Source of the DNA: Candidatus Magasanikiibacteriota bacterium | GTDB taxonomy: Bacteria; Patescibacteriota; Patescibacteriia; Magasanikbacterales; UBA922 | Length of the DNA stretch: 64,000 nt | NCBI GenBank assembly: GCA_041674805.1 | Contig: JBAYVA010000001.1 | Coordinates: 198,612-262,611, forward strand | Reading direction: 5' to 3' | Part shown: one piece after another, positions 16,260 through 50,321 of the stretch | Numbering within the stretch: position 1 is the first letter of the stretch | Layout: each line of letters starts with the position of its first letter | Program-made: the position numbers and the translations under genes | The notes under the pieces: generated by a model | Told to the model about the DNA's origin: nothing | Databases searched by the model: none | The model's input: the letters and a program-made list of their open reading frames with translations, nothing else

Positions 16260-18470
16260 TTAGACAAATAATTTGAAGACAAGAAAAAGTCCATATAATA
16301 ATGCACCTAAACCTAGCGAAATTGCTATTTTTTTATTTGCTGGTAATTTTTCTTGTTCTGTAGTTTCAGATATATTTTCTGAAGAATTATCAACATCTTC
16401 AAAAATTTCTTCATCTTCAGTTTCTTCTACTGAATCTTGTTCTTCTACTATTTTTTCACCACGTGTTTCTTCTATTTTTGGATTATTATTTGAATTATTT
16501 TTTGGTTTAGAATTTGTTTTTGCTATATCTAATATATTTTCTTCTATAGTATAAAGCACTGGTAAAATTTCCATGTCTTGTTCATTTTCTGCTACTTCTA
16601 CTATTTCTTCGGTACTAGTTGGCATTTCTTCTTCTAAAACAATTTCAATTGTAGTTGTAGGGATTTGTAGAGTGGTGGTTGCTGTATTTGAATTTGAAAT
16701 ATTTTCATTTGAAATGTTTGTTTTAGAAAAATCTTTTAAAATTTCATTCCAATTTTTATTCAAATAAGCTGGGATAGCATAAGATGTAATCCAAACCCTG
16801 GTTTGTTCAGTATTCTCTTCTTTTGAGGATATTCCACCATCTGATTGTTGTGCTGATTTTAGATAATCACTAGGTGTAGTTCCATTTTTATTCCAATCAT
16901 TTTCATTTTCATCAAGTGCATCAATAGCTTGTAGTGCCCAAGTTGTAGAAAATAAATTTGAATTAAAACTAGAATTATTATCTTGTTTTGATTTTAAATA
17001 ATTTTTTGCAGACTCAATTGCTAATATCACATTTTCATTTGTAGTATTCAAAGATTTTAAAGCTTGGATAGCTGCTGCAGTCATATCTATATCACCAAAA
17101 TTACCTATTTTAGTATTTTGTTTAGAAAGTAAAAAATCAGTGCTTATTTTGATTATTTCATCTTCATAGTTATAACCAGCATTAACAAGAGTAATAATAC
17201 CAAATATATCATCATTATAAAGAGTATTTTCGCCTATTTGTTTTCCATCAAAACTCTCTATTATTTTTTGAATATAATTTATAGAAGATGAATTATATGG
17301 ATTTTTATCTAAAGACATTAAAGCCATGGCTCTACGTTCATAATCTGTTATTTCAGAATTATCTGAAAGGGGATTATTTATTAAATAATTTGCAATACTT
17401 TCTTTTTGTTGAGAATTATTTGAATAGCTACCATAAGCAATTGCTGCCCAATCAGTATATAATGTAGAATCAAAAAAATTTCCGTTTTCAATTTTTGAGT
17501 TTAGATATACAAAAGCATTATCTATAAAATTATTTGTTGTATTAGATGAAGAGGATCCATTACTTTCAGATGGAGTATTTGTTGTTATATCATTTTCTTC
17601 TTCAGTGTTGTTAGAATTTTCTACTGGATTTATAGTCATTATTTCACTAGTAATAAATCCATTTTTTTTGGCATAAATTGTATAAGGTGTGGTAGTTGTA
17701 ATAAATAATTCATAAATACCGTCTTCATCAAAAATTTCTTCACCATTTAAAAATAATGTGCTACTAGCTGAATTTGATAATATTTCGTTCCAATTTTCAT
17801 CGTAACCAGAAGATTCTTTGATATTTAAAGTAGTTGTTGAATTTACAAAAGGTGTAGTAGTAGAAGTTTCAATTTTTAATTGAGATAATCCGTAAAATAA
17901 ATAAATATTTTCTTGTTCTTCTAATATTTCTTGATTAAGACCTTTGGTACCTGGTACATAATAATTATTGTACCATAACCAATAATTAAAATCAGAACCA
18001 TCATAATTATTTATTTTATTTAAAAAAACTTGATCACTATACCAATTTCCTAAAATAGCCCAATCTTTTTCTTTAGATAATTGTTGAATTGCACACCAAG
18101 CATTCAAAGTATTCTCTGTTCCGTTTTCAGTATTTGGACAAGCTGTAACAATAAAATCATTACTATATAATTCTTGATCATAAGTTTGTATTTGAAGATG
18201 AATTGTTGTCGTTGGCAATGGTTCAATTACAATATCATTATTTGGAATTTCTTCTGGTGTAGGTTCTTCAGTACTAGCTACTAAATTATTATCAGTGCTT
18301 AAAATAGCATTCTCAACTATAATTTCATCTTTTGTTTCTGTACTTTCTAAAATAAGAGGAACTTCTTCGGGATTTTCTCCCTCAGCATAAGCAAAATTTG
18401 ATATAGTCAAATTGCCAAATAAACTAAAGATTAAAACTAAATTTATTATTTTAAAATTTACTTTTTTCAT
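16260..18470 (-). CDS. Cell-surface protein with a prenyltransferase/squalene-cyclase-like alpha-alpha toroid repeat domain (transcobalamin alpha-domain-like) and a C-terminal TM anchor
   Basis: Signal peptide. Repeated helical-hairpin motifs (TDWAAIAYGSY, ERRAMALMSL, MTAAAIQALKSL, TTWALQAIDAL). Acidic region followed by a TM anchor at the C-terminus. Confidence 0.55.
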   Translation of the reverse strand: MKKVNFKIINLVLIFSLFGNLTISNFAYAEGENPEEVPLILESTETKDEIIVENAILSTDNNLVASTEEPTPEEIPNNDIVIEPLPTTTIHLQIQTYDQELYSNDFIVTACPNTENGTENTLNAWCAIQQLSKEKDWAILGNWYSDQVFLNKINNYDGSDFNYWLWYNNYYVPGTKGLNQEILEEQENIYLFYGLSQLKIETSTTTPFVNSTTTLNIKESSGYDENWNEILSNSASSTLFLNGEEIFDEDGIYELFITTTTPYTIYAKKNGFITSEIMTINPVENSNNTEEENDITTNTPSESNGSSSSNTTNNFIDNAFVYLNSKIENGNFFDSTLYTDWAAIAYGSYSNNSQQKESIANYLINNPLSDNSEITDYERRAMALMSLDKNPYNSSSINYIQKIIESFDGKQIGENTLYNDDIFGIITLVNAGYNYEDEIIKISTDFLLSKQNTKIGNFGDIDMTAAAIQALKSLNTTNENVILAIESAKNYLKSKQDNNSSFNSNLFSTTWALQAIDALDENENDWNKNGTTPSDYLKSAQQSDGGISSKEENTEQTRVWITSYAIPAYLNKNWNEILKDFSKTNISNENISNSNTATTTLQIPTTTIEIVLEEEMPTSTEEIVEVAENEQDMEILPVLYTIEENILDIAKTNSKPKNNSNNNPKIEETRGEKIVEEQDSVEETEDEEIFEDVDNSSENISETTEQEKLPANKKIAISLGLGALLYGLFLVFKLFV

Positions 18471-19059: not shown

Positions 19060-19245
19060 CTGCTTAAGTGAGCAGAAAGATGTAAAAATATTTCTTATTG
19101 TGATAAAAAATAAGAATTTTTTTCCTGCTCGGGATAAATTATACTTGAAGACCGGACTTAACTTTTGTAAAAGTTTTACCGTTGCGGCACAGTGGAGGAA
19201 TTTGACCTCACTTCCAACAAATATAAATTAATTTGTAATATTGTT
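19060..19245 (-). ncRNA. Candidate cobalamin riboswitch / structured attenuator leader upstream of the DUF4430 operon
   Basis: On the minus strand the leader reads GGAAGUGAGGUCAAAUUCCUCCACUGUGCCGCAACGGUAAAA...AAGUCCGGUCUUC. This resembles the cobalamin-aptamer GGUG.AA.UCC, CCACUGU, CCGCAACGGUAA and B12-box-like elements. Two hairpin+U-tract terminators follow; the second ends in U8 directly before the AUG. Confidence 0.4.
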
Positions 19246-19354: not shown

Positions 19355-20215
19355 ATGTACAAAAGATATTTATTCACAGTTTTGGCAAGTTTTACTTTGC
19401 TTGGTGCTGGTTGTACTTCATCAATAAATATCAATACTAATTCTTTTTTTGATAAAAAAGTAGAAGTAGAGGATACTAGTCTCAAAGTAGGCTCTGCTGT
19501 GTTTGCTGAATGGAAAGATAAGACTTGGTACAAAGGTACTATCAATGCAACTTGTGAGGGCGGTTTTGATGTTTTGTTTTTGGATAATACAAATAAGTGT
19601 GTAACTGAATTGCAAATTTTGCGAGACAAACTGCCTAATATTGCAGATTTACAAGTAGGTAGCAAAGTAATTGCCAAATGGACAGCTAATGCTTATTATG
19701 ATGCGGAAATTATTAAAGTAAATCCTAATAATTTTACTGTCAGATATTATGACAAATTAGAAAGAGATGTTGTACTAGATGAAATAATTTTGGATAATCG
19801 TGTAGAAGTAAGAGGCACTGTTGAATTACAAAAGACTTCTGAAATAAAGACTTCTGAAATATTGAAAGATAATTTTAAGGCAGGTGACAAAGTAATTGCT
19901 GAATGGATGACTTCTAATTCACTTTATTCAGCAACAATTATTGGCATTTGTGAAAAAGGTTTAAATATAAAATATTATGATAACGCTGAAAAATGTTTAG
20001 CAACTTCACAAATTGTAATAGATTTGCCAGCAGAAAAAGATACTCTGGCAGTTGGTACTAAAGTATTAGTTAGAGATAGTAATACAAACAATTTTTTTGC
20101 TGGTGAAATTAGCAAAATTGTTGGTACTAATTATGAAACAAAGTTTTTGATATATGGTGATGAAGCTGTAAAAGTTTTGCCAATTAGTCAACTTAGATTA
20201 GACACTAGAAAATAA
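19355..20215 (+). CDS. Lipoprotein with four tandem Tudor/Agenet-like about 70-aa repeats
   Basis: Lipobox LLGAGC. Repeats VGSAVFAEWKDKTWYKG / VGSKVIAKWTANAYYDA / AGDKVIAEWMTSNSLYSA / VGTKVLVRDSNTNNFFAG. Confidence 0.55.
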   Translation: MYKRYLFTVLASFTLLGAGCTSSININTNSFFDKKVEVEDTSLKVGSAVFAEWKDKTWYKGTINATCEGGFDVLFLDNTNKCVTELQILRDKLPNIADLQVGSKVIAKWTANAYYDAEIIKVNPNNFTVRYYDKLERDVVLDEIILDNRVEVRGTVELQKTSEIKTSEILKDNFKAGDKVIAEWMTSNSLYSATIIGICEKGLNIKYYDNAEKCLATSQIVIDLPAEKDTLAVGTKVLVRDSNTNNFFAGEISKIVGTNYETKFLIYGDEAVKVLPISQLRLDTRK

Positions 20216-21544: not shown

Positions 21545-22597
21545 TTATTGAATGTTCAATGGTTTAGAAAAGAAAACGGGATCAATACTTGTAATATTTT
21601 TTCTAATAATATTTCGTATGTTTACAAGTTCGGGATATTCATAGAAAAATAATATTTTTTGATTTTTAATTGCATTTGCTGTTGGTTTGTCTGTAAGTAC
21701 AAAGTGGGCAAAACTTTCGGCAATATCTTCGTCTGTATCAGTAGCTGCATATTCAGTAATGAAATTTTCAGTATATTCTTCATAAAAATAAGTGACATCT
21801 TCTTCATACGCGTCGTAACCTACGATTGTTTCCCAATCTTCATATAATCCGCCACCCCAGAATTTTTGGAAATAAATAAAGGAATAAGCCTTATCATATA
21901 GACAACCTTCAGATAATAATATTGTTTCACAAGTGTATTCATCGTAGTTGTTATAATCTACTTGGCTACTGTTTAGTGTGATTAGATGACCAAATTCATG
22001 TACAAGAGTATAAGTAAAATCTTGTAAATCGAAAAATTTTCCTTTTTCTAATGTGTCTGCAGGATCAACATACAATCCCCAAACATTATCATCGTTTAAA
22101 TACATTGAAGCTAGAGAACCATCGATACCGTCTGTATTTATAATAAAATTGTTTATATATTTTGTAGTATTTATTTCACCAAAAATAGTGTAGAAGTAAT
22201 CCCATAAGAAATTATGTTCAGCTGTATTGTTTGCTTCCAAAGTAAATTCTGGGTCAGTAGTTTTGGTTGTTAAATTTATTTTTCCATCTGTAATTTTGTA
22301 AGTAGCTAAGTCTAAGCCATCCTCTCCATCTACATATTCTAAATTATCCAAATAAGAAACTATACTAGTATTATTTAAAAAATCTTTTTTTGGTAATACT
22401 TTTGCTTCTATTATTTCTTCTTCAATAACTTTTGCATTATTAGTTTCTTCAATTTGTGGTGTGTTTATTACTTGTTGTTTACTTGTATTAGTAAAAGTAA
22501 TGAGAGCTATTACAAAAAATATTATAATGGCTATTCCTGCAATACTTAGTAATAATATCCATTTGTATTGTTTGATAAAAGCTATGACTTTTTCCAT
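21545..22597 (-). CDS. Membrane-anchored putative zinc metallopeptidase (HExxH...E)
   Basis: LVHEFGHLITL and a downstream DEDIAESFAHF. Confidence 0.45.
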   Translation of the reverse strand: MEKVIAFIKQYKWILLLSIAGIAIIIFFVIALITFTNTSKQQVINTPQIEETNNAKVIEEEIIEAKVLPKKDFLNNTSIVSYLDNLEYVDGEDGLDLATYKITDGKINLTTKTTDPEFTLEANNTAEHNFLWDYFYTIFGEINTTKYINNFIINTDGIDGSLASMYLNDDNVWGLYVDPADTLEKGKFFDLQDFTYTLVHEFGHLITLNSSQVDYNNYDEYTCETILLSEGCLYDKAYSFIYFQKFWGGGLYEDWETIVGYDAYEEDVTYFYEEYTENFITEYAATDTDEDIAESFAHFVLTDKPTANAIKNQKILFFYEYPELVNIRNIIRKNITSIDPVFFSKPLNIQ

Positions 22598-22624
22598 ATT
22601 TTAAATTAAGATTTATTTGTGCTA

Positions 22625-22653
22625 ATTTTATCAGAAATAGGGGATAGGAGCAA
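22625..22653 (-). promoter_or_regulatory. Promoter (-35 TTGCTC, 17 nt, -10 TAAAAT) within the duplicated terminator-promoter module, copy 1
   Basis: Read directly on the minus strand; a duplicate of the module at 27222-27250. Confidence 0.45.
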
Positions 22654-22699
22654 GTTTTTTGAATACAAAAAAGACCTTTTTATAAGGTCTTTTGATTTT

Positions 22700-23071
22700 T
22701 TAGTTAAAAGTAGTGAAAATTATCATGCAAGCACCAAAAAGTAAGAATGGTAATATAAAGAAAGATATTAAACCTATACCAATGTAGCGTCTTTTTTTTC
22801 TAAAAGAGATATATATACTAGCTAACATGATTATAAAAAATATGGTTGAAATTGCTGAAAAATAATATCCTTCTAAAAAAGCGGAACCATAAATGGAGAG
22901 TTTTGTAAATATGGTCATTAAAAATATAGAGATTACAACTGGTCCAAAAAGACCTAATATAAAATCACGTGTTTTGTTACCTTTAGTTGCGTAATAACCT
23001 GGCTCTGTTTGATTCATTTTTTTTATTTCATCTATTTGTTCCAAACCATTTGGATTATTGGGATTATTCAT
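22700..23071 (-). CDS. Small membrane protein, paralog family member A (C-terminal LLFGAC motif)
   Basis: Paralogous to 23132-23554 and 26748-27194 (shared KRRY/KRYY-ligIGLI/LivGM-PfLLFGaC architecture). Confidence 0.5.
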   Translation of the reverse strand: MNNPNNPNGLEQIDEIKKMNQTEPGYYATKGNKTRDFILGLFGPVVISIFLMTIFTKLSIYGSAFLEGYYFSAISTIFFIIMLASIYISFRKKRRYIGIGLISFFILPFLLFGACMIIFTTFN

Positions 23072-23131
23072 ATTGTTTTTTAATGATTTAAATATAAAAA
23101 AATAAAGAACTAATAAAAAAAGCTATCACAA

Positions 23132-23554
23132 CTAGTTAAAAAATACAGCAAAACAAGATCCAAAAACTAATAAGGGTATAATTATTGTACTACTCATACC
23201 TACTATTAAATAATATCTTTTTGTTTTTAAGGTGTAATAAATAAAAGTTATTATAAAGAAAATAGGAATAATAGTATAAAACCATATTCCAAAAATCATA
23301 TCTGTATAAGCATATAAATATGGTATAATTGCTGCAAATAAGGCAATAAAAATGAATATATAGATAGCTCCTTTTGAAAAGTCGTCTATTTTTTCAGTTT
23401 TATTTTTGTAATAAGATGTAGTTTCTGTATTATTTTCAGAACTAGAATTAGAATCAGAAATAGAGGTAAAACCTGAAGAGTTTTTTTCAGCTTTTTCTAA
23501 AAATTTTAGAAGTTCACTTTCTTTATTTTCGGGATTATGATTTGGATTGTCCAT
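23132..23554 (-). CDS. Small membrane protein, paralog family member B (C-terminal LVFGSC motif)
   Basis: ESELLKFLEKAEK..SYYKNKTEK..KRYYLIVG..PLLVFGSC shared with paralog C. Confidence 0.5.
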   Translation of the reverse strand: MDNPNHNPENKESELLKFLEKAEKNSSGFTSISDSNSSSENNTETTSYYKNKTEKIDDFSKGAIYIFIFIALFAAIIPYLYAYTDMIFGIWFYTIIPIFFIITFIYYTLKTKRYYLIVGMSSTIIIPLLVFGSCFAVFFN

Positions 23555-24299
23555 ATTTTTTTTCTTTTAGATGCTTTAAATTTATAAACACTAAAGCAAT
23601 AAGTGAAATATATTGAAATAAAGTTAGCCCAAAATAGTGAGGATTGTCTCTGATAAATTCTTCAAAAAATCTAAATATAAAATAAGAATTCATGAGTAAA
23701 TAAAATAAATAGCCTGGTTGTGCTGTTTTCTTTTTGTATAATAAAACAAAAAATAACAGTGTCATGAAAATTATTTCGTATATTTGCGTAGGATGTCTGT
23801 TGATACCATCACCAAAATTTACTCCCCAAGGCAAGTTTGTAGCGATACCATAACAACAACCTTCCAAAAAACAACCAATTCTGCCAATAGCAACACCAAG
23901 AGCAATACCAGGTGCAAACAAATTTCCTTTTTTTTCTTTTATACCCAACTTCTTTTTTACGTACCAAATTGTCAAAGTACCACCGAGTAAGCCACCTGTA
24001 ATAGTACGACCAGATAAAATAAGTGCTAAATTGAAATTGTTTTCTAAAATTAATGGAAAATTTATTATCAAAATTGGTAATTTGGCACCAATTACACCAC
24101 CAAGTAAACCAGCCACTAAAATATAGATAGAATTATCATTTAAATTGTTTTCTTTTTTGGCAGCAAAGTAATAATAAATAAGTCCAACAATTAGCCCTAA
24201 CAAAACAAAAAAAGAATAAGATGGTATTTCTAAATTATTGATATGAAATAAAACAGGTTTTACACCCCAATTTTCTGGGTGAATATGTAGATCTATCAT
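23535..24299 (-). CDS. lgt: Prolipoprotein diacylglyceryl transferase
   Basis: Lgt signature (GRIGCFLEGCCYG; HPTQIYE). Confidence 0.85.
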   Translation of the reverse strand: MIDLHIHPENWGVKPVLFHINNLEIPSYSFFVLLGLIVGLIYYYFAAKKENNLNDNSIYILVAGLLGGVIGAKLPILIINFPLILENNFNLALILSGRTITGGLLGGTLTIWYVKKKLGIKEKKGNLFAPGIALGVAIGRIGCFLEGCCYGIATNLPWGVNFGDGINRHPTQIYEIIFMTLLFFVLLYKKKTAQPGYLFYLLMNSYFIFRFFEEFIRDNPHYFGLTLFQYISLIALVFINLKHLKEKKYGQSKS

Positions 24300-24301
24300 A
24301 T

Positions 24302-24784
24302 TTATTTTACTATTTTTTTGCTAAGAGAACAACATCCTCCAGCTTTCATACAATTGTAAAGCTTATAAGCAGGACATAAACCAAGAGCTGATACTGTCTT
24401 CATTATTGCTAAAAATAGTACAATTATCCAACCAATTTTAGTATTTATAAAATATAAGAATATGATAGCTAAGAGAGCAAAAAAACTACCAAGAGCGTGA
24501 GCAAAACGCATACCAGCTACTCCTGCATTTATTTTTTTACTTTTTACAAAAAGTCCAATAGTGTGGTTGTATAAGACAATCATTGGGGCGTGTTTGATTG
24601 TCAAAAGAGCTGAGAAAAATAATATAGCAAAAGTTAGTAAAACTAGTAATTTTAAGTGTAAAAAAAAGGCCAACCAAAGTATTAGCATGACACCATATCG
24701 ACAAAAAGCAAAAGCATCGCTTCTTATTTCTACAAAATCAGTTGAACAATTTTGGCAACTATTATTTTCTTCGGCTGTTAGCAT
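24302..24784 (-). CDS. Cys-rich integral membrane protein (DUF4395-like)
   Basis: Four TM helices with an N-terminal CQNC and C-terminal C..C..GGCC cysteine clusters. Confidence 0.35.
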   Translation of the reverse strand: MLTAEENNSCQNCSTDFVEIRSDAFAFCRYGVMLILWLAFFLHLKLLVLLTFAILFFSALLTIKHAPMIVLYNHTIGLFVKSKKINAGVAGMRFAHALGSFFALLAIIFLYFINTKIGWIIVLFLAIMKTVSALGLCPAYKLYNCMKAGGCCSLSKKIVK

Positions 24785-24790
24785 AAAATT

Positions 24791-25372
24791 TTATTTGTTT
24801 AGTTTAAATTTTGGGAAAAACATACCAACTTCTTTTTGATATTTTTTGTATTCTATAAAAGTTTGTGATAATAATTTTTCTTCTTGTTTGGCTCGGTAAT
24901 ACATGAAAGGTATGAAAATAAAGGCGTGAGCCAGAAAAGCTAAATAGTTACTGTACACCAAACATGAACCAATAAACATCATCATTAGAGAAGCATAGAG
25001 TGGATGTCTGACTAGATTATACATACCTGTTTTGGTAAGAGTATGGTTTTGATAAATTTTTATTTGGTTTGCCCAATTTTTACCTAAGTTTAGCCTTCCT
25101 ACAATGTTGATTGTACATCCAGCTACGATCATCGTCAATCCTGATAAAATCAGTATATATTGTAAATTTTGGGGTATTTGGATAGTACCTATTTGAAATC
25201 TAATTAATAGATAAAAGCCAACAAAAAATAAAGTCATAGTACCTGTTTCTACAATACTTCTTTTTTCTTTTGTGGCTTTTTTGTCTATTCCTTCTACAAA
25301 ATTGATAAGTATAGATGTGAACAGAGCAAACAGACAAATGCCAATAATTATGTTGGAAATTAGGTTTATCAT
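24791..25372 (-). CDS. Isoprenylcysteine carboxyl methyltransferase (ICMT)/phospholipid methyltransferase family membrane protein
   Basis: YNLVRHPLYASLMM motif; about five TM helices. Confidence 0.6.
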   Translation of the reverse strand: MINLISNIIIGICLFALFTSILINFVEGIDKKATKEKRSIVETGTMTLFFVGFYLLIRFQIGTIQIPQNLQYILILSGLTMIVAGCTINIVGRLNLGKNWANQIKIYQNHTLTKTGMYNLVRHPLYASLMMMFIGSCLVYSNYLAFLAHAFIFIPFMYYRAKQEEKLLSQTFIEYKKYQKEVGMFFPKFKLNK

Positions 25373-26733
25373 TTTCGGTGGAACATGTTATAAGCTGAAA
25401 AAGGAATCTTTTTTAGCTCAGGAGTTATAATGTGGACACATTCTTTTTGCATAGATTTCATATCGAAGTTATAAACATCAATAAAAGAAGTGACACTAAT
25501 ACGAAAAGTATTTTCATCAATATATTTCAATTTTTCTTCTTGTGATTTTAACAAGAAACTTGCTGGGATAATATTTTTGACGTCTTTGATAAAGTTAGTA
25601 CAATTACAACCACCAATTCCAGAAAAAACTTCGTTGGATTTTTCTTTCAAAATTCTATCAGCATCAAAAGCAAAAGTATTATCTATCAAAGGCAAATAAC
25701 TTTTTACTTTTATTTTTCTCGTGATTGGCACAAATTTCTTTTTGTCTGATTTGACCATATATGTCACAGCCACTCTTTCTACATTGCAAGGTAGGGGAAT
25801 GATGTCACCTTTTTGAAATAAGTCTGGAGCTTGTTCTTCTATTTTTTTGATAACGCCTGACAAAGTCAATCTGTTTTTGGTATTTATTTCTCTCAATCTA
25901 CCAAAGTAGGTGACTGGTTGAAAATTGATACCTCTAATACCTTTGGTTTCCGTGCCAAATTCTATTATTTTGCCAATTTGATCATCGTTGTAACCTTTTT
26001 CTAAAGTAGTTACTAGAGTAATAGGTATTTCGTATTTGCGTAAATTTTCAATAGCTTTTAATTTTGTTTCAAGTAAATCTCTACCTCGTAAATGAGTATA
26101 AGTATTTTTGTCAAAACCATCAAATTGTAAATATACTTCAAATTTACCTTTGAATTGACTAAGTTCTTTGACAAATTCTTCATCTTCAGCAATTCTAATA
26201 CCATTGGTATTGAGCATGATATATTTGATCTTTTTTTCTCGAGCTGTTTTGATAATCTCTATTATTTCCGGATGAACAGTTGGTTCACCGCCACTAATTT
26301 GTAAAATTTCTGATTCACCACCTTCACTGTCTACCAAAAAATCCAACATTTCAGATATTTTTGCTACTGACAAAGGTTCGCCTTTGCCACTGTTAGCATA
26401 ACAAGTTGGGCAACCAAGATTACATTTGTTGGTGACTTCTATAAGAGCTATACAGGTGTGTTGATCATGTTGAGGACATAAACCGCAATCAAAAGGGCAA
26501 CCTTTGTCTGTTTTGGTTTGGGTTTTGCAAGGTGTACCGGGTTTGTCAAATTCTCTTTTGCTTAGATGATATTCAAGATTTTCTTCAAACAATTCTTCTT
26601 GTAAGCCGTGTTCTTTGCAAAATTTGTGTAAAAATACTTTTTCATCTTTTATGACAATTTTTGTAGGTATTACTTTTAGACATTTTGGGCAAATACTTGT
26701 GGTCGATTCGTGATAAATATAATTTCTATCCAT
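25369..26733 (-). CDS. Radical SAM protein with an N-terminal zinc-ribbon-like Cys cluster
   Basis: CNLGCPTC (Cx3Cx2C) radical SAM core and upstream CPKC...C.EHG and CPFDCGLCPQH clusters. Confidence 0.75.
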   Translation of the reverse strand: MDRNYIYHESTTSICPKCLKVIPTKIVIKDEKVFLHKFCKEHGLQEELFEENLEYHLSKREFDKPGTPCKTQTKTDKGCPFDCGLCPQHDQHTCIALIEVTNKCNLGCPTCYANSGKGEPLSVAKISEMLDFLVDSEGGESEILQISGGEPTVHPEIIEIIKTAREKKIKYIMLNTNGIRIAEDEEFVKELSQFKGKFEVYLQFDGFDKNTYTHLRGRDLLETKLKAIENLRKYEIPITLVTTLEKGYNDDQIGKIIEFGTETKGIRGINFQPVTYFGRLREINTKNRLTLSGVIKKIEEQAPDLFQKGDIIPLPCNVERVAVTYMVKSDKKKFVPITRKIKVKSYLPLIDNTFAFDADRILKEKSNEVFSGIGGCNCTNFIKDVKNIIPASFLLKSQEEKLKYIDENTFRISVTSFIDVYNFDMKSMQKECVHIITPELKKIPFSAYNMFHRK

Positions 26734-26747
26734 ATTTTATGATAATT

Positions 26748-27194
26748 TTATAAATAAGTTTGTCCTGTAAATAAAAAAATTATTGCTTGGATTATTAATC
26801 CAGCAAGAAAAAATAATAAAGGTGGTAAAATTAGTATACAAATCATCAAACCTGCTACAAGATAATACCTTTTAGTTATTCTTAAAAATATAAAAATAAT
26901 TAAAATAATAACTAAACTAATCATTAAAAATAGAATTAAATATACTCTATCATCAAAAATATTTAAAATAAAATCTAGTATATATTTTCCAAATAATATC
27001 AAAAAACCTATTGAATAGACTAAACCTTTTATAAAATCTTGTTTTTTTTCAGCTTTATTTTTGTAATAAGATGCAGTTGATGTATTGTCAGAGTTAGAAA
27101 TAGAAGTAGAAGGTGAAGACTTTTTTTCTGATTTTTCTAATAATTTCAAAAGTTCACTTTCTTGCTCTTTTAAATTATCATCTTTATTTTCCAT
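26748..27194 (-). CDS. Small membrane protein, paralog family member C
   Basis: QESELLKLLEKSEKKSS..SYYKNKAEK..KRYYLVAG paralogy with 23132-23554. Confidence 0.5.
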   Translation of the reverse strand: MENKDDNLKEQESELLKLLEKSEKKSSPSTSISNSDNTSTASYYKNKAEKKQDFIKGLVYSIGFLILFGKYILDFILNIFDDRVYLILFLMISLVIILIIFIFLRITKRYYLVAGLMICILILPPLLFFLAGLIIQAIIFLFTGQTYL

Positions 27195-27221
27195 ATTTGA
27201 AATTAAGGTTTATTTGTGCTA

Positions 27222-27250
27222 ATTTTATCAGAAATAGGGGATAAAATCAA
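27222..27250 (-). promoter_or_regulatory. Promoter (-35 TTGATT, 17 nt, -10 TAAAAT) within the duplicated terminator-promoter module, copy 2
   Basis: Read directly on the minus strand. Confidence 0.5.
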
Positions 27251-27300
27251 GTTTGTTGAAAACAAAAAAGACCTTTTATTAAGGTCTTTTTTAGATTAGT

Positions 27301-29244
27301 TTAGGCTTGTTGATATTTGAAAGATTTTTTCATAGCTTTCCAGAAAACTTCTTTATTGACACAATGTGGATTGCTACCATCACAATCTTTATTTTCTAAG
27401 ATATTGCCATATTTAGCAAAAGTATTTTTGTCTTCGTACATATATGGATCTTTTTGCAAGTTTGCTGTGACTGCTGCGTGAGCTTTGTCTACGTCACCAC
27501 CAGCTTTGCCTAATTCTTCTTCCATACCAAGATTGTAGGCACGGACAAGACCACGAAACTCAGCTGATTTGGCTTCTTTTTGGACTGTTTCAAGTGCTTC
27601 GCCAAGTATAGCTGCAGTTGGTGCTGAGGCAGGGGAATCGACAAGGTCTATTAGTTCTCCGAAAGCGGCTTTTTTGGCCTCGTCTGTTATTTTGTCAATG
27701 ATATCATCTTTTATTTGATCTTTTATGCGACCTGTTTCTCTATCGAAGTCTTGTTGCTCTTGGCTTAATCCTTTGTCTATAGCCGCTTGCCTTTCAAGCA
27801 TTCTTTCATAAAATAGCAATGATTCATCGTATTTCTTTTCTTTTTCTGTTGGATTAGAATTCCAGAATTTCAAATAATCTTTGGCATTGCCCAGTTTTTC
27901 ATTCCAACGAAGTTTTGCCATTTCTGTTGGATCCATATTTTCTATATCATTTTTTGGATCATTTTTGTAAGCGAGCATTTCACTAATAGCTTTATATTCT
28001 TTGTCACTAAGCTTTTCACCTTTATCACGCAAACTATCGTTTAGAGCTGTCAGTGAATTTTTGGTTTTCTCGTCTATTTTTCCGGTAGCGTAGTCTATAG
28101 CTGTTTGTTTGTTCATTGGGTCGGTGAGAGATTCGTATTCTTTTTTGTTTTTATCGTTGATTACTTCCATGTAATCTGCCTTGGTCTTTTCTAAACCGTC
28201 TAATTGTTTTTGTAAATCAGCGTCTGGATTGTCAGCCAATTCTTTTTTCAAAAATTCTATTTGTTCGTCTATTTCAATGACTTTTCCAGGATAGATAGAT
28301 GGTCCAACTTGTGAAATACAAGATGCTTTGTCAGCACCTGTTAAGGCGACACAACCAGAAGGGTTTTGAAATTTGACAGAGGTATTCAAAATACATTCTT
28401 CTTTGGTATAAGAGTAAAGTCCACCTTTTATTTTGTCACAAGCACCAAGGTCGCCAGTATTTTCAGCAATACGTAGATAACATTTGTCTTTTGGTGGGTT
28501 GGAACCAGAATCACTGAAATCTTCGCCTTTTATTTTTTCACAGGTATCGCCAGAGCCTCCTTGAATAGCAGCATTTTGCAAACAATGATCAGGATTGTCA
28601 AAGAAACTACAAGCCCATTCATTTATATTACTGACACAACCTGTAAGAAATAGGGGGGCTATCATGATAGTCGCAACTAAAGCAGATTTTTTGGCCATAG
28701 TTTTGCTTAGTACAGTTTTGACAATGATTATCAAAGTCCAAATAGCGAGTAACCAAAACAAAAATTTGGTGGTAGACAATAGTGGCACGCCGATATAATA
28801 AATCACGCCTCTACCAATGTCAGTATATTTATTTTCAAAATATACCAGTTGTCTAGCAAAAAAGTACCAAGGTAAAGTCATTAGTAAGGCAATAACTGGG
28901 AAAATTAGTTTGCAAGTTTTTAGTTTGGTTTTTTTCAAAATAAAATAAACAATGTAACCACCAAGCATAGAGATAAATCCTAGTGCCAGTCCAGCAAAAA
29001 TACTATACTTACTAAAAATTTTAGTTATACGAGCGTCGGTAATATCAGCGTATTTGATACTTGCCAAATCATAAGCAAAAAAATAAAAAAGACCGCCAAA
29101 CAGAATCAAAAATAAAAAAGGCATAAGAGCAGAATGTAGAAAACATTTCTTTGGCTTTTTTTCTTTCTTTATTTCGGGAATTTCTTCCACTTTTGAATCC
29201 TCTTTTGTTTCCTCTTGAATTGCTTCATTATTTTCTTCTTCCAT
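27301..29244 (-). CDS. Large hypothetical membrane protein (N-terminal multi-TM domain, Cys-rich extracytoplasmic region, acidic coiled C-terminal half)
   Basis: Long ORF with TM segments; no recognisable catalytic motif. Confidence 0.45.
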   Translation of the reverse strand: MEEENNEAIQEETKEDSKVEEIPEIKKEKKPKKCFLHSALMPFLFLILFGGLFYFFAYDLASIKYADITDARITKIFSKYSIFAGLALGFISMLGGYIVYFILKKTKLKTCKLIFPVIALLMTLPWYFFARQLVYFENKYTDIGRGVIYYIGVPLLSTTKFLFWLLAIWTLIIIVKTVLSKTMAKKSALVATIMIAPLFLTGCVSNINEWACSFFDNPDHCLQNAAIQGGSGDTCEKIKGEDFSDSGSNPPKDKCYLRIAENTGDLGACDKIKGGLYSYTKEECILNTSVKFQNPSGCVALTGADKASCISQVGPSIYPGKVIEIDEQIEFLKKELADNPDADLQKQLDGLEKTKADYMEVINDKNKKEYESLTDPMNKQTAIDYATGKIDEKTKNSLTALNDSLRDKGEKLSDKEYKAISEMLAYKNDPKNDIENMDPTEMAKLRWNEKLGNAKDYLKFWNSNPTEKEKKYDESLLFYERMLERQAAIDKGLSQEQQDFDRETGRIKDQIKDDIIDKITDEAKKAAFGELIDLVDSPASAPTAAILGEALETVQKEAKSAEFRGLVRAYNLGMEEELGKAGGDVDKAHAAVTANLQKDPYMYEDKNTFAKYGNILENKDCDGSNPHCVNKEVFWKAMKKSFKYQQA

Positions 29245-45822: not shown

Positions 45823-46791
45823 CTACCCAAGCAACACATTAAATAAATATCCCGTAAAAATAATACCTAGACCAACGACTGAAGCAAAAATAATGATTAG
45901 CTTTGTTTTCATTATTTTTTTCAAAATCATAAATTCTGGCAAAGATAGAGCAGTGACTGCCATCATAAAAGCCAGAGTTGTCCCAATAGCTACACCTTTT
46001 TCAGTCAAAGCGCTAATGAGAGGAATCACACCTGCTGCATTCGAATAGAGTGGTATGCCGACCAAAACTGCCAGCGGTACAGCATACCATTTGTCTGCGC
46101 CTGCATACTCTGCAAGGAAGTCTGCTGGCACATAGCCATGTATCCAAGCTCCAAGTCCAATGCCGATGATGATATAAATCCAAATTTTTTTTATAATATC
46201 CCAGGTATAATCTAGTGCATAGTTGTGTCTTTGTTTGTAAGTCATTTTTGGAAGTTGTAGATTGTTTTTTTGTTGATTTTTTTGAGTTATGTCAGTCAAC
46301 AAATTTTCTATAGGCAATTTGCCAATCAACATTCCTGAAAATATAGCGATAAGCAAACCGCTGACAATATAAATAGTAGCTACTTTCCAACCAAACATGC
46401 CAAACAAGAGGACAATAGCAACTTCATTTATCATGGGAGACGCCACCAAAAAAGAAAATGTGGCACTAAGTGGTACTCCAGCTTCGACGAAGCCTAAAAA
46501 AAGGGGAACAGCAGAACAAGAACAAAAGGGAGTGACTATGCCGAGTAGAGAAGCGAGAACATTGCTCACAAATTTATTTTTGTTGGACAAGAAATGTCGT
46601 ACTTTTTCGGGTGGTAAATAAGATCTAATAATAGAAACTATATAAATAATTACTATCAGCAATAAAAATATTTTTATAGTATCAAAAATAAAAAAATTTA
46701 GGCTACTAGCCAACAGTGTATTTGGTGAGATAGAGAAGACTTGATAGGTCAACCAATCAGCCAATAATTGTATAGGATAAAAGATGTTCAT
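45823..46791 (-). CDS. Predicted permease (COG0701/DUF318, ArsP-like)
   Basis: About eight TM helices. The genomic context with ArsR and a thioredoxin-like CxxC protein is typical of this family. Confidence 0.55.
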   Translation of the reverse strand: MNIFYPIQLLADWLTYQVFSISPNTLLASSLNFFIFDTIKIFLLLIVIIYIVSIIRSYLPPEKVRHFLSNKNKFVSNVLASLLGIVTPFCSCSAVPLFLGFVEAGVPLSATFSFLVASPMINEVAIVLLFGMFGWKVATIYIVSGLLIAIFSGMLIGKLPIENLLTDITQKNQQKNNLQLPKMTYKQRHNYALDYTWDIIKKIWIYIIIGIGLGAWIHGYVPADFLAEYAGADKWYAVPLAVLVGIPLYSNAAGVIPLISALTEKGVAIGTTLAFMMAVTALSLPEFMILKKIMKTKLIIIFASVVGLGIIFTGYLFNVLLG

Positions 46792-49819: not shown

Positions 49820-50321
49820 CTCGGCGAGTGGGGCTCGAACCCACGACCCACTGGTTACAGTTTCCTCTCTCTTTCGAAAAAGACTGGACTATTTCATCAC
49901 CCATGCCATAAGCCCCGATAAATCGGGGAGCATTAAGGGTGCGGAGCGCTTCGAATCCGTTTCTGCGAATCCTACTCCCACAAGGGGATAGTCTCTGAAC
50001 CTTCTTATTTTTTCAGAAGTATTTGTTTATAGACAAACCTTGAAAACAAGGATCTACAATTTATTACTTCAATTTTACCGAGGTAAAAATTTGAAAAGAT
50101 AAGCTTGGCTGCAGGTTGCCATCTTGACCTAAATCAAGAACAGGTTTCCTGTCTAACAAATCTATTTAGATCTGCAGTTTCTGCTATTACAATTAAGTAA
50201 GACAGAACAGTTCACTCCGTTGGCACTGTGGTGTTTCCACCGCAGGCTGCTATATTTAATTCCAATAAATCAGAATTACTTCTTTTAACAGCCAGTTGCT
50301 CTACCGCTGAGCTACCGCCGA
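49820..50321 (-). tRNA. tRNA-Asn(GUU) interrupted by a ~430-nt group I intron in the anticodon loop. Exons are 50288-50321 and 49820-49857; the intron is 49858-50287. CCA is not encoded.
   Basis: The joined exons give a 72-nt cloverleaf: UCGGCGG-UA-GCUC-AGCGGUA-GAGC-A-ACUGG-CUGUUAA-CCAGU-GGGUC-GUGGG-UUCGAGC-CCCAC-UCGCCGA-G. The intron carries group I R (GUUCAGAGACUA) and S (AAAUAGUCC) elements forming P7. The 5' exon ends in U and the intron ends in G. Confidence 0.65.

Follow-up and report, generated by a model that had tools for sequence, protein, structure and literature searches.

Why would a bacterium encode a relative of prolipoprotein diacylglyceryl transferase (Lgt) next to a radical S-adenosylmethionine (rSAM) enzyme resembling those that act on lipid tails, together with several very small membrane proteins? 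The question is raised by a 64,000-nt stretch of the Candidatus Magasanikiibacteriota contig JBAYVA010000001.1 (hereafter the window, that is, the full stretch, to which all coordinates refer), in which we analyzed the open reading frames (ORFs) computationally. The answer that we favor, with a probability of about one in two, is that seven minus-strand genes of the window form a self-contained, horizontally spread protein-lipidation system. The genes of this cassette are as follows.

26748-27194, minus strand: smA, small membrane protein of 148 aa, paralogue of smB, with the Cys-less end ...PPLLFFLAGLIIQAIIFLFTGQTYL; absent from the close relative L086
25369-26733, minus strand: rSAM, 454 aa, Tes/GDGT-MAS-family radical SAM enzyme
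24791-25372, minus strand: ICMT-family gene, 193 aa, ICMT/PEMT-family membrane methyltransferase with an RHPLY motif; accessory, in clade 1 cassettes only
24302-24784, minus strand: DUF4395 gene, 160 aa, four-helix Cys-rich membrane protein; accessory, in clade 1 cassettes only
23535-24299, minus strand: Lgt-family gene, 254 aa, transferase of an "N146C" subfamily with the signature GRIGCFLEGCCYG
23132-23554, minus strand: smB, small membrane protein of 140 aa ending in KTKRYY-LIVGMSSTIIIPLLVFGS-C-FAVFFN; absent from a 98%-identical relative
22700-23071, minus strand: smC, small membrane protein of 123 aa ending in RKKRRY-IGIGLISFFILPFLLFGA-C-MIIFTTFN; the conserved copy, with an orthologue in L086

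A sequence-only reading of the same DNA had described these seven genes, and we found all seven ORFs, closely packed, at the positions it gave. Its family assignments (radical SAM, ICMT, Cys-rich protein with four transmembrane helices, Lgt family) were upheld by Pfam. Its report that five genes overlap by 4 to 20 nt is accurate for the rSAM/ICMT (4 nt) and Lgt/smB (20 nt) junctions, the other junctions being separated by gaps of 2 to 60 nt.

Conservation of the gene linkage, which that reading had named as the key test of its proposal, is found on a large scale. A pattern scan with one genome per species returned at least 593 relatives, from which the best 80 loci (designated by L numbers) were kept. 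Using tblastn combined with ORF clustering, we observed the Lgt-like gene adjoining the rSAM gene in 67 of 75 genome loci, covering about 15 phyla. By record title, these phyla include Bacteroidota, Firmicutes, Actinobacteria, Chloroflexi and the Cyanobacteria-related Melainabacteria, and extend to Verrucomicrobia, Planctomycetes, Elusimicrobia, bacteria of the candidate phyla radiation (CPR) and DPANN-labelled metagenome-assembled genomes (MAGs). Two clades can be distinguished. Clade 1, with rSAM proteins 50-80% identical to that of the window, shows the order rSAM-ICMT-DUF4395-Lgt and comprises contigs labelled Woesearchaeota, Nanoarchaeota, Pacearchaeota, Clostridia, Bacteroidales, Actinobacteria, Coriobacteriia, Elusimicrobia and Verrucomicrobia; this full order recurs in 16-17 loci from both bacteria and DPANN-labelled MAGs. 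Clade 2, with rSAM proteins about 41-47% identical to that of the window, shows the order Lgt-rSAM only and includes many Bacteroidota as well as Paenibacillus, Melainabacteria, Planctomycetota and Gammaproteobacteria. In the Ktedonobacteria-type loci L020 and L022, a small gene lies between the Lgt-like and rSAM genes. The identities of the rSAM and Lgt-like proteins to their window copies correlate with a Pearson coefficient of 0.93 (n = 64 loci), which argues that the two genes are inherited or move as a unit. Independent gene calls on CPR contigs and on the PGAP-annotated plasmid of Chondrinema litorale agree on the arrangement, and the cassette occurs in cultured isolates, among them members of Chondrinema, Chitinophaga, Hymenobacter, Flavobacterium, Aquimarina and Paenibacillus. 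The linkage had been called unusual from the window alone; finding the same gene order in dozens of unrelated genomes goes far beyond chance.

The closest relatives of the window locus (L086, L087 and L088, rSAM 98.5% identical) lack smA and smB and carry only an orthologue of smC. Three paralogues bracketing the operon are consequently not a rule of the cassette, since a relative this similar manages with one small gene. Divergence between the window and these relatives rises along the operon, identity being 98.5% for rSAM, 94% for ICMT, 91% for DUF4395, 78% for the Lgt-like protein and 61% for smC; a 350-aa gene downstream of the cassette is 79% identical. This gradient suggests either a recombination tract or a faster co-evolution of the Lgt-like enzyme and its client. 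No other conserved or functionally suggestive neighbor was detected among the loci examined. Recurrent neighbors considered as additional members (an ABC ATPase, a phosphoribosyltransferase, Fpg, an M23 peptidase, an ArsP permease and a flavin adenine dinucleotide oxidase) were rejected as unrelated housekeeping genes. A known defense system was likewise rejected, the one PADLOC similarity, to pVip, being generic and confined to the radical SAM core. In both clades every component scores below the cut-offs of the NCBIfam families, a scan of viral contigs returned no relatives, and in the literature searches directed at the cassette no paper connected Tes homologues with Lgt or with small proteins of this kind. 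The cassette is widespread and apparently undescribed, and we found no curated family for it.

The third conserved component consists of the small proteins. Of those in the window, smA and smB are clearly paralogous (43% identical, E = 5e-17), and the match of smC to smB is confined to the last 29 residues, in the C-terminal helix (E = 8e-7); the earlier description of three paralogues holds, for smC over this helix. smB ends in IIIPLLVFGSCFAVFFN (...PLLVFGS-C-FAVFFN) and smC in FILPFLLFGACMIIFTTFN (...PFLLFGA-C-MIIFTTFN), which places the cysteine 6 and 8 residues from the C-terminus and not about 12 as first read. In most loci the Lgt-like or rSAM gene is accompanied by small membrane-protein genes in tandem, as a rule one to four of them and now and then six, as in L014 with its six lipobox-type mini-proteins. 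While these proteins diverge rapidly, they share a constant module made of a K/R-rich loop, about 20 hydrophobic residues, small residues, an invariant cysteine and a tail of 2-16 residues. We searched for this module under a fixed rule (a small ORF on the same strand carrying the module, within 1.5 kb) and found it in 61 of 76 loci. Among nearby small ORFs, 98 of 538 carry the motif, compared with 105 of 3344 distant ones (odds ratio of 6.9, Fisher p = 3e-34), that is, a background of 3%. The proposal that the small proteins are substrates is well supported by these counts.

The clade 1 consensus is P(-7)-L-L-x-x-G(-2, 81%)-[SGAP]-C, with P common at -7, and the tail beyond the cysteine has a median of 7 residues (range 2-12). 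In clade 2 the consensus is G(-4, 80%)-[FL]-[SGA]-[TIAV]-C. Compared with the lipobox [LVI][ASTVI][GAS]C, the layout and the clade 1 residue at -1 (S/G/A) fit, whereas G at -2, the frequent F at -3, T/I/V at -1 in clade 2 and the usually C-terminal placement differ. By its composition, the module is laid out much like a lipoprotein signal peptide (n-region, h-region, lipobox-like end), in most cases at the C-terminal end of the protein. The same motif lies in the first, signal-peptide-like helix in L006, L014 and L034, which fits recognition at the outer face by an Lgt-type enzyme and not C-terminal processing. One motif-bearing 64-aa gene on an isolate plasmid is annotated by PGAP. The flavor of the motif tracks that of the Lgt-like active site, Y26/C146/C151 in clade 1 and H26/E30/C146 with a hydrophobic residue at 151 in clade 2; the Ktedonobacteria-type loci L020 and L022, which keep N146/D151, have the most canonical lipobox, A-I-[AG]-C. 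The smC orthologue of L086 has kept the C-terminal module almost unchanged and has diverged in its middle part (61% identity overall, against 98.5% for rSAM), and small-gene copy number differs between near-identical strains, 1 versus 3. Such copy-number variation, combined with selective conservation of the module, is expected of clients and not of enzyme subunits. From the positive-inside rule and the topology of Lgt (PMC4728403), we infer that the cysteine is positioned on the outer side of the membrane, the same side as the Lgt active site. The small proteins are very plausibly the substrates of the cassette. Pfam and NCBIfam scans assigned them to no real family, and a word-indexed homology search with smC returned two near relatives only, including P0159 of the ACD_18 cassette, so the homology of these proteins is untraceable by word-indexed search. 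Taken together with the synteny, the motif statistics lead us to predict with high confidence a three-way functional association of Lgt-like enzyme, radical SAM enzyme and small proteins.

What kind of Lgt is associated with these proteins? The window protein matches LGT PF01790 (E = 1.3e-38, residues 15-237 against profile positions 1-232 of 240), has a phmmer match to the E. coli Lgt structure 5AZB and is 25% identical to the E. coli enzyme. Its scores fall below every NCBIfam lgt equivalog cut-off (84.5 versus 118.9 bits for TIGR00544, 126.6 versus 334 bits for NF000778), clade 2 members reach 39-76 bits against the lgt equivalog models, and PGAP names one cassette Lgt-like protein "family protein" only. 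We aligned 66 cassette-linked copies with E. coli Lgt and read the alignment against the mutational map of Mao et al., which assigns residue roles from mutants (PMC4728403) and in which H103 and E151 mutants are inactive (PMC4728403). G142, R143, G145, G154, P197, E202, Y235, R239, E/D243 and R/K246 are invariant in the 66 copies; the window protein keeps R143, Y235, R239, E243 and R246 and has Thr in place of H103. Residue H103 of the HGGL motif is V, M, L, I or T in all 66 copies, and never His. Within the region equivalent to the E. coli signature motif G142RLGNFINGELWG154, N146 is replaced by Cys in 64 of 66 copies, and E151, the "selection filter" for phosphatidylglycerol (PG), by Cys in clade 1 and by hydrophobic residues in clade 2. 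A catalytic network that is kept while H103, N146 and E151 are changed suggests that the glyceryl-transfer center is retained and that the donor-selection and arm-2 elements differ. The name Lgt given in the earlier reading is thus justified by the domain and has to be qualified for the enzyme, which belongs to a non-standard subfamily without H103 and E151, both essential in E. coli, and without N146. On these residues, the cassette proteins classify as a distinct Lgt subfamily, separate from the housekeeping enzyme. One copy is carried by a 162-kb plasmid of the isolate Chondrinema litorale, and such a plasmid-borne location also argues that the protein is not the housekeeping enzyme.

Two observations on this family deserve mention. 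The loci L020, L022 and L023 (Ktedonobacteria/Chloroflexia) look intermediate, and the Lgt-like proteins of L020 and L022 keep N146 (GRLGN...D). Lgt-family genes are also present on the DPANN-labelled contigs L001, L003, L006 and L014 (Woesearchaeota, Nanoarchaeota, Pacearchaeota), an assignment that is taken from MAG record titles, the neighbors being ordinary housekeeping genes (ValRS, GatB, phosphoribosyl pyrophosphate synthase). These genes contrast with the statement in a 2025 paper that no archaeal Lgt homologues are known (PMC12462473).

The second enzyme has Pfam matches to Radical_SAM (5.8e-25) and Zn_ribbon_HMPTM (8e-16), and aligns with GDGT-MAS 7TOL over nearly its entire length by phmmer (E = 5.7e-75, residues 8-453 against chain positions 22-497). 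An AlphaFold2 model (predicted local distance difference test score, pLDDT, of 83) compared by Foldseek matches 7TOL/7TOM with TM-scores of 0.80-0.81 and 33% identity; all other structures match the core of the model only, at 0.40 or less. The four-domain layout of GDGT-MAS (rubredoxin-type domain, N-terminal cluster, radical SAM core, C-terminal domain) is present, with a rubredoxin-type motif C15x2C18x20C39x2H42, N-terminal auxiliary cluster ligands C79/C83/C86 plus His (H89/H92) and the radical SAM motif C104x3C108x2C111. GDGT-MAS has been described with the same three sites, as Cx2Cx20Cx2H, N-terminal [4Fe-4S] ligands and Cx3Cx2C (PMC9433317). The N-terminal metal-site residues are invariant or nearly so across 75 relatives (H42 in 74 of 75). 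In the C-terminal half, only C316, C432 and H434 are invariant and the cluster site is rewired. Met439 and Tyr459, reported to be fully conserved in 1000 archaeal homologues, have Thr415 and Ile435 as their counterparts in a single HMMER pairwise alignment, from which the whole C-terminal residue mapping is taken. Clade 1 proteins have Thr or Ser at the position where Tes and most of clade 2 have Met. Among curated families, TrsS (NF045646) gives the best, full-length score (370.6 bits, cut-off 490), and Tes (NF045702) gives 327.6 bits (cut-off 450), clade 2 members scoring 286-351 bits against the latter. No in-frame TGA, and hence no selenocysteine, occurs in the rSAM ORF. No SPASM, twitch or RRE domain was detected in Pfam and NCBIfam scans, the NCBIfam matches to SPASM families covering the core only (36-68 bits). 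By sequence and predicted structure, the enzyme classifies as a full-length GDGT-MAS/Tes homologue and not as a bona fide Tes. A Tes-like assignment was one of the options named beforehand; a lipid-tail enzyme fits with lipid or lipoprotein modification, and no unrelated substrate is indicated.

Within this enzyme family, the rSAM protein of L023 keeps the Tes-like CC and FC cysteines in its C-terminal region. A candidate selenocysteine in the rSAM gene of L021, which has TGA in frame (L021 10001-11400), was rejected because the TGA codons fall at conserved Gly positions, as in recoding under genetic code 25 (Gracilibacteria/Absconditabacteria type), the code that this genome uses. The cassette, as judged from these codons, is present in recoded CPR lineages too.

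The two remaining genes are confined to clade 1, ICMT being missing from about three quarters of the loci. The window protein matches ICMT PF04140 (E = 4.6e-13) and contains the motif VRHPLYAS, its RHPLY part being conserved across 18 cassette members. Its best NCBIfam match is protein-S-isoprenylcysteine O-methyltransferase (NF040696), end-to-end with 83.6 bits against a cut-off of 160, and it also matches PEMT, LmtA and MddA. The fold also methylates lipid phosphate, phosphatidylethanolamine and thiols, and given these matches the methyl-accepting nucleophile cannot be deduced. The DUF4395 protein (PF14340, 1.6e-8) is a four-helix membrane bundle with an internal repeat. Its invariant features are FCR where helix 1 begins, FAH, and a C-terminal C137-x7-C145-x5-C151C152, after which comes a basic, presumably cytoplasmic tail; a fold search was uninformative. 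That DUF4395 might make up for the altered C-terminal site of the radical SAM enzyme is no more than hinted at, the coincidence with Thr or Ser in clade 1 representing one evolutionary event.

How could these components work together? Gene content, family relationships, conserved residues, synteny and motif are observed, and the model below supplies a chemistry and an order of steps. Its core would consist of one to several small integral membrane proteins, a specialized Lgt paralogue and a radical SAM enzyme of the Tes/GDGT-MAS type. The acceptor would be a signal-peptide-like transmembrane helix, usually the last one, with its invariant cysteine at the outer face. On this cysteine the Lgt-like enzyme, through its Arg143/Arg239 center, would place a (di)acylglyceryl-type lipid as a thioether; we consider lipidation of the cysteine by this enzyme somewhat more likely than not. 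The Tes-like enzyme would use 5'-deoxyadenosyl radical chemistry on inert carbons of the lipid tails, either by modifying the donor lipid beforehand on the cytoplasmic side, which would avoid a topological problem, or by coupling or cyclizing the tails of the protein-bound lipid. We propose this nature of the radical SAM step tentatively, as an idea that stands behind its alternatives taken together. The resulting small proteolipid would carry an unusual anchor, which might for instance be macrocyclic or span the membrane. Clade 1, to which the window belongs, would add a further tailoring or support step through the ICMT-family methyltransferase and the Cys-rich DUF4395 protein. It is possible, although somewhat unlikely in this exact form, that an Lgt paralogue combined with Tes-type C-C or C-S bond formation on the lipid tails of dedicated mini-proteins makes up an unrecognized system of post-translational modification, spread over many bacterial phyla and DPANN-labelled MAGs, that yields macrocyclic or membrane-spanning lipids anchored to protein.

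Several observations weigh against this model. H103 and E151, essential in E. coli, and N146, part of the hydrogen-bond network of the signature, are replaced across the Lgt-like subfamily, which may therefore use another donor or a different chemistry. In the C-terminal cluster region of the radical SAM enzyme, the alignment with GDGT-MAS shows C438 replaced by V, M439 by T, C455 by E, Y459 by I and C470 by S. In GDGT-MAS and Tes, sulfur of the C-terminal cluster traps the lipid radical; with the cluster ligands largely replaced, C-C coupling of the Tes type cannot simply be assumed. The predicted topology, with the cysteine at the outer face and the radical SAM enzyme in the cytoplasm, would make direct contact between the two awkward. 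smA has no cysteine at the corresponding position (PPLLFFLAGLII), 15 of 76 loci are without a motif ORF (some of them contig ends or variants outside the rule), and position -1 in clade 2 is mostly T, I or V, which is atypical of a lipobox.

Other explanations account for part of these data. The two enzymes might remodel bulk membrane lipids, for instance into membrane-spanning or macrocyclic diacylglycerol lipids, or move diacylglyceryl to a non-protein thiol, the small proteins then being accessory subunits or assembly factors with a structural or catalytic cysteine. We regard this lipid-only pathway as unlikely, although it makes good use of a radical SAM enzyme that has the whole GDGT-MAS architecture, including the C-terminal domain lining the lipid pocket, and of altered PG-selection residues (E151, N146) that suggest an unusual lipid ligand. 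The active site of GDGT-MAS was moreover occupied by E. coli phospholipids when the enzyme was isolated (PMC9433317), and bacterial Tes homologues are treated in the literature as candidate makers of membrane-spanning lipids (PMC8941075, PMC11868695). However, an accessory subunit is not expected in one to six tandem, fast-diverging copies that keep just a K/R-transmembrane-GxC module, and the co-variation of this motif with the Lgt-like active site points to direct recognition. To our knowledge, Lgt-family enzymes have been shown to transfer solely to protein cysteines, and we know of no membrane-spanning-lipid producers among the clade 2 taxa Flavobacterium, Chitinophaga, Hymenobacter and Paenibacillus. 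Less likely again is a chemistry like that of ribosomally synthesized and post-translationally modified peptides (RiPPs), in which the C-terminal helix of the small protein would enter the Tes-like lipid channel and a C-S or C-C bond would form at or near its cysteine, for example when the cysteine sulfur captures a lipid or peptide carbon radical as a thioether in place of the cluster sulfur of Tes, the Lgt-like enzyme acting before or after, either on this residue or on the lipid partner. With most of the cluster ligands replaced and C316, C432 and H434 left invariant, the site would suit binding of a substrate thiolate at a free coordination position, in the manner of sactipeptide/SPASM enzymes, the tandem variable "precursor-like" genes resemble RiPP loci, and the peptide-modifying radical SAM enzymes SkfB and SuiB are the next-best structural neighbors. 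The similarity to SkfB and SuiB is nevertheless limited to the radical SAM core (TM-score 0.40), the SPASM, twitch and RRE searches were negative, the cysteine is predicted at the outer face, away from the cytoplasmic enzyme, and a strictly conserved Lgt paralogue would be left without a clear role.

The sequence-only reading had itself proposed an analogy with CaaX processing. On such a route the cysteine would be S-diacylglycerylated, the short tail cut off and the exposed cysteine carboxylate methyl-esterified by the ICMT-family enzyme. The full-length best match of this enzyme to a prenylcysteine methyltransferase model and the tails of 2-12 residues in clade 1 agree with such a route, and MYXO-CTERM proteins offer a bacterial case of cleavage next to a cysteine whose lipidation is predicted, not yet shown (PMC11980579). 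The comparison across genomes speaks clearly against it, and we consider it improbable: the cysteine is never terminal, the cassette has no conserved protease, whether CPBP/Rce1-type or other, and most of the family, namely clade 2, does without ICMT and DUF4395, the roughly three quarters of loci without ICMT having small-protein tails that are equally short. In L006 and L014, which carry ICMT, the motif lies in the first transmembrane helix, tens of residues or more from the C-terminus, and the ICMT score stays under the family cut-off for a fold that methylates several types of substrate. Finally, the neighborhood could be a coincidence of a housekeeping lgt gene with ordinary or spurious small ORFs. 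The window does encode canonical lipoproteins, such as the product of 19355-20215 starting with MYKRYLFTVLASFTLLGAGC, and no second lgt is visible within its 64 kb. This explanation is effectively refuted by a synteny that is kept across phyla and, by record titles, across domains, by the Lgt active-site signature of the cassette with its scores under the lgt equivalog cut-offs, by the plasmid copy in an isolate and by the motif enrichment (p = 3e-34); on synteny, signature residues and the plasmid-borne copy we also rejected the idea that the Lgt-like protein is a mere housekeeping enzyme.

The surroundings of the cassette in the window include three further features.

27186..27290, minus strand: upstream copy of a direct repeat of about 105 bp, with a terminator-like hairpin, a promoter-like site, a leader and the ATG of smA
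22590..22693, minus strand: downstream copy of the same repeat, with a terminator-like hairpin, a promoter-like site, a leader and the ATG of the next gene (21545-22597)
27301..29244, minus strand: protein of 647 aa without Pfam match, candidate extra client of uncertain membership

The promoter-like site upstream of smA, TTGATT-17-TAAAAT with a TG extension (extended -10), is located at 27250-27222, and a terminator-like hairpin after smC (22693-22669) closes the operon. By these predicted signals, the seven genes form one unit. The two repeat copies, 90% identical and in direct orientation on both sides of the whole cassette, are the only ones within 64 kb. Each contains a hairpin AAAAGACCTT...AAGGTCTTTT (27264-27292 in the upstream copy), a promoter-like site and a leader TAGCACAAATAAA, then ATGGAAAA. 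The same module flanks the cassette on both sides in the ACD_18 relative (L086 5868-6010 and 9537-9660), an uncultured-bacterium contig that is the nearest database relative of the window. The repeat pair could have been left behind by an insertion or by recombination, or have arisen by duplication of a promoter, and fits a block-wise acquisition or rearrangement of the cassette. The 647-aa protein has an acidic N-terminal tail, several transmembrane helices, KKSALVATIMIAPLFLTG-C203 and then a hydrophilic domain of 444 aa, so that its internal lipobox-like module resembles that of the small proteins. It may be a further client or a lipoprotein with a mis-called start, and its gene shows no conservation beside the cassette in other phyla.

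The host, a low-GC bacterium (about 30% GC), encodes in the window sigma-70 RpoD, ClpB, an M23 peptidase and an adenosylcobalamin (AdoCbl) riboswitch. Downstream of this riboswitch (19106-19242, minus strand; Rfam RF01482, 62 bits) come a 199-aa ORF and a 736-aa ORF (16260-18470), the latter without Pfam match. A group I catalytic intron (49865-50281, minus strand; Rfam RF00028, 65.7 bits) matches the full-length model, and no tRNA or rRNA gene was detected near it. An ArsP_1-family permease gene is located at 45823-46791 on the minus strand, about 19 kb from the cassette, and another lies directly downstream of rSAM in Ktedonosporobacter (L020 11568-12488). This recurrence is probably a coincidence.

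The cassette also bears on the way lipid biosynthesis is read from genomes. Surveys count Tes homologues by BLAST (e.g. E < 1e-50, identity > 20-30%) to infer producers of glycerol dialkyl glycerol tetraethers (GDGTs) or branched GDGTs (brGDGTs) (PMC8941075, PMC11868695). The literature searches directed at the cassette likewise met with no more than the generic idea that brGDGTs might be made by bacterial Tes homologues. Judging from its phmmer E-value and its identity to GDGT-MAS, the cassette rSAM subfamily would probably pass such filters, although its invariant partners point to a protein-linked chemistry, and many bacterial Tes homologues probably act with lipid-tagged proteins instead of making bulk membrane lipids. 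What surveys of Tes deduce for Bacteroidota, CPR, DPANN and other groups may thus have to be revised. If the post-translational modification system considered above exists, a large share of the "bacterial, CPR and DPANN Tes homologues" in surveys would not be tetraether or brGDGT synthases. The Lgt fold has a second, widespread and putatively client-dedicated lineage with a Cys in its signature motif, and the cassette, with its three genes, is accessible to experiments on what may be a new lipid modification of proteins.

How does the cassette compare with known systems? With CaaX prenylation, Rce1 and ICMT it shares an ICMT-family methyltransferase encoded beside proteins with a cysteine near the C-terminus, but the cassette has neither prenyltransferase nor CaaX box nor protease, its cysteine lies in an outer-face transmembrane helix and ICMT is optional. 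MYXO-CTERM proteins, as defined together with their CPBP protease partner (PMC11980579), also have, beside a C-terminal transmembrane helix, a cysteine for which lipidation has been proposed, with an Lgt-like enzyme as the possible catalyst (PMC11980579). Their order is Cys, transmembrane helix and Arg-rich end, whereas that of the cassette proteins is K/R loop, transmembrane helix, Cys and short tail; MYXO-CTERM requires the CPBP protease and tags large secreted proteins, while the cassette has no conserved protease and tiny membrane clients. TrsS (NF045646) is the best-scoring curated family for the cassette rSAM protein, which differs in scoring below the cut-off and in lacking selenocysteine. 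A more distant rSAM gene of the Tes/TrsS superfamily (38% identity) is found in L085, a Mycolicibacterium vanbaalenii plasmid (NZ_CP126902.1, 129074-130657), where its neighbors are an ArsM-like DVU_1556-family methyltransferase, CcdA and a protein disulfide oxidoreductase. An Lgt gene is missing from this context, and the rSAM gene, itself below the TrsS cut-off, may represent a TrsS-like branch. With Tes/GDGT-MAS (MJ0619, PDB 7TOL/7TOM), the cassette enzyme shares fold, domain order and identical rubredoxin-type, N-terminal [4Fe-4S] and radical SAM sites. It differs by its score below the family cut-off, by the replacement of Met439, Tyr459 and three C-terminal cysteines, by a bacterial host that shows no sign of archaeal-type ether lipids and by its constant pairing with an Lgt paralogue and small Cys proteins.

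By analogy, the cassette would work most like Lgt-dependent lipoprotein modification. It has in common with Lgt-LspA-Lnt maturation the Arg143/Arg239/Glu243/Arg246/Tyr235 network and, in its candidate acceptors, the layout of a positively charged n-region, an h-region, small residues and an invariant, predicted outer-face cysteine. In contrast to that pathway, the cassette enzyme is of a separate subfamily (H103 lost, N146 changed to Cys, E151 changed), no LspA or Lnt is part of the cassette, the acceptor helix in most cases comes last in a small polytopic protein and leaves 2-16 residues after the cysteine, the clients are encoded beside the enzyme, and the radical SAM partner is obligatory.

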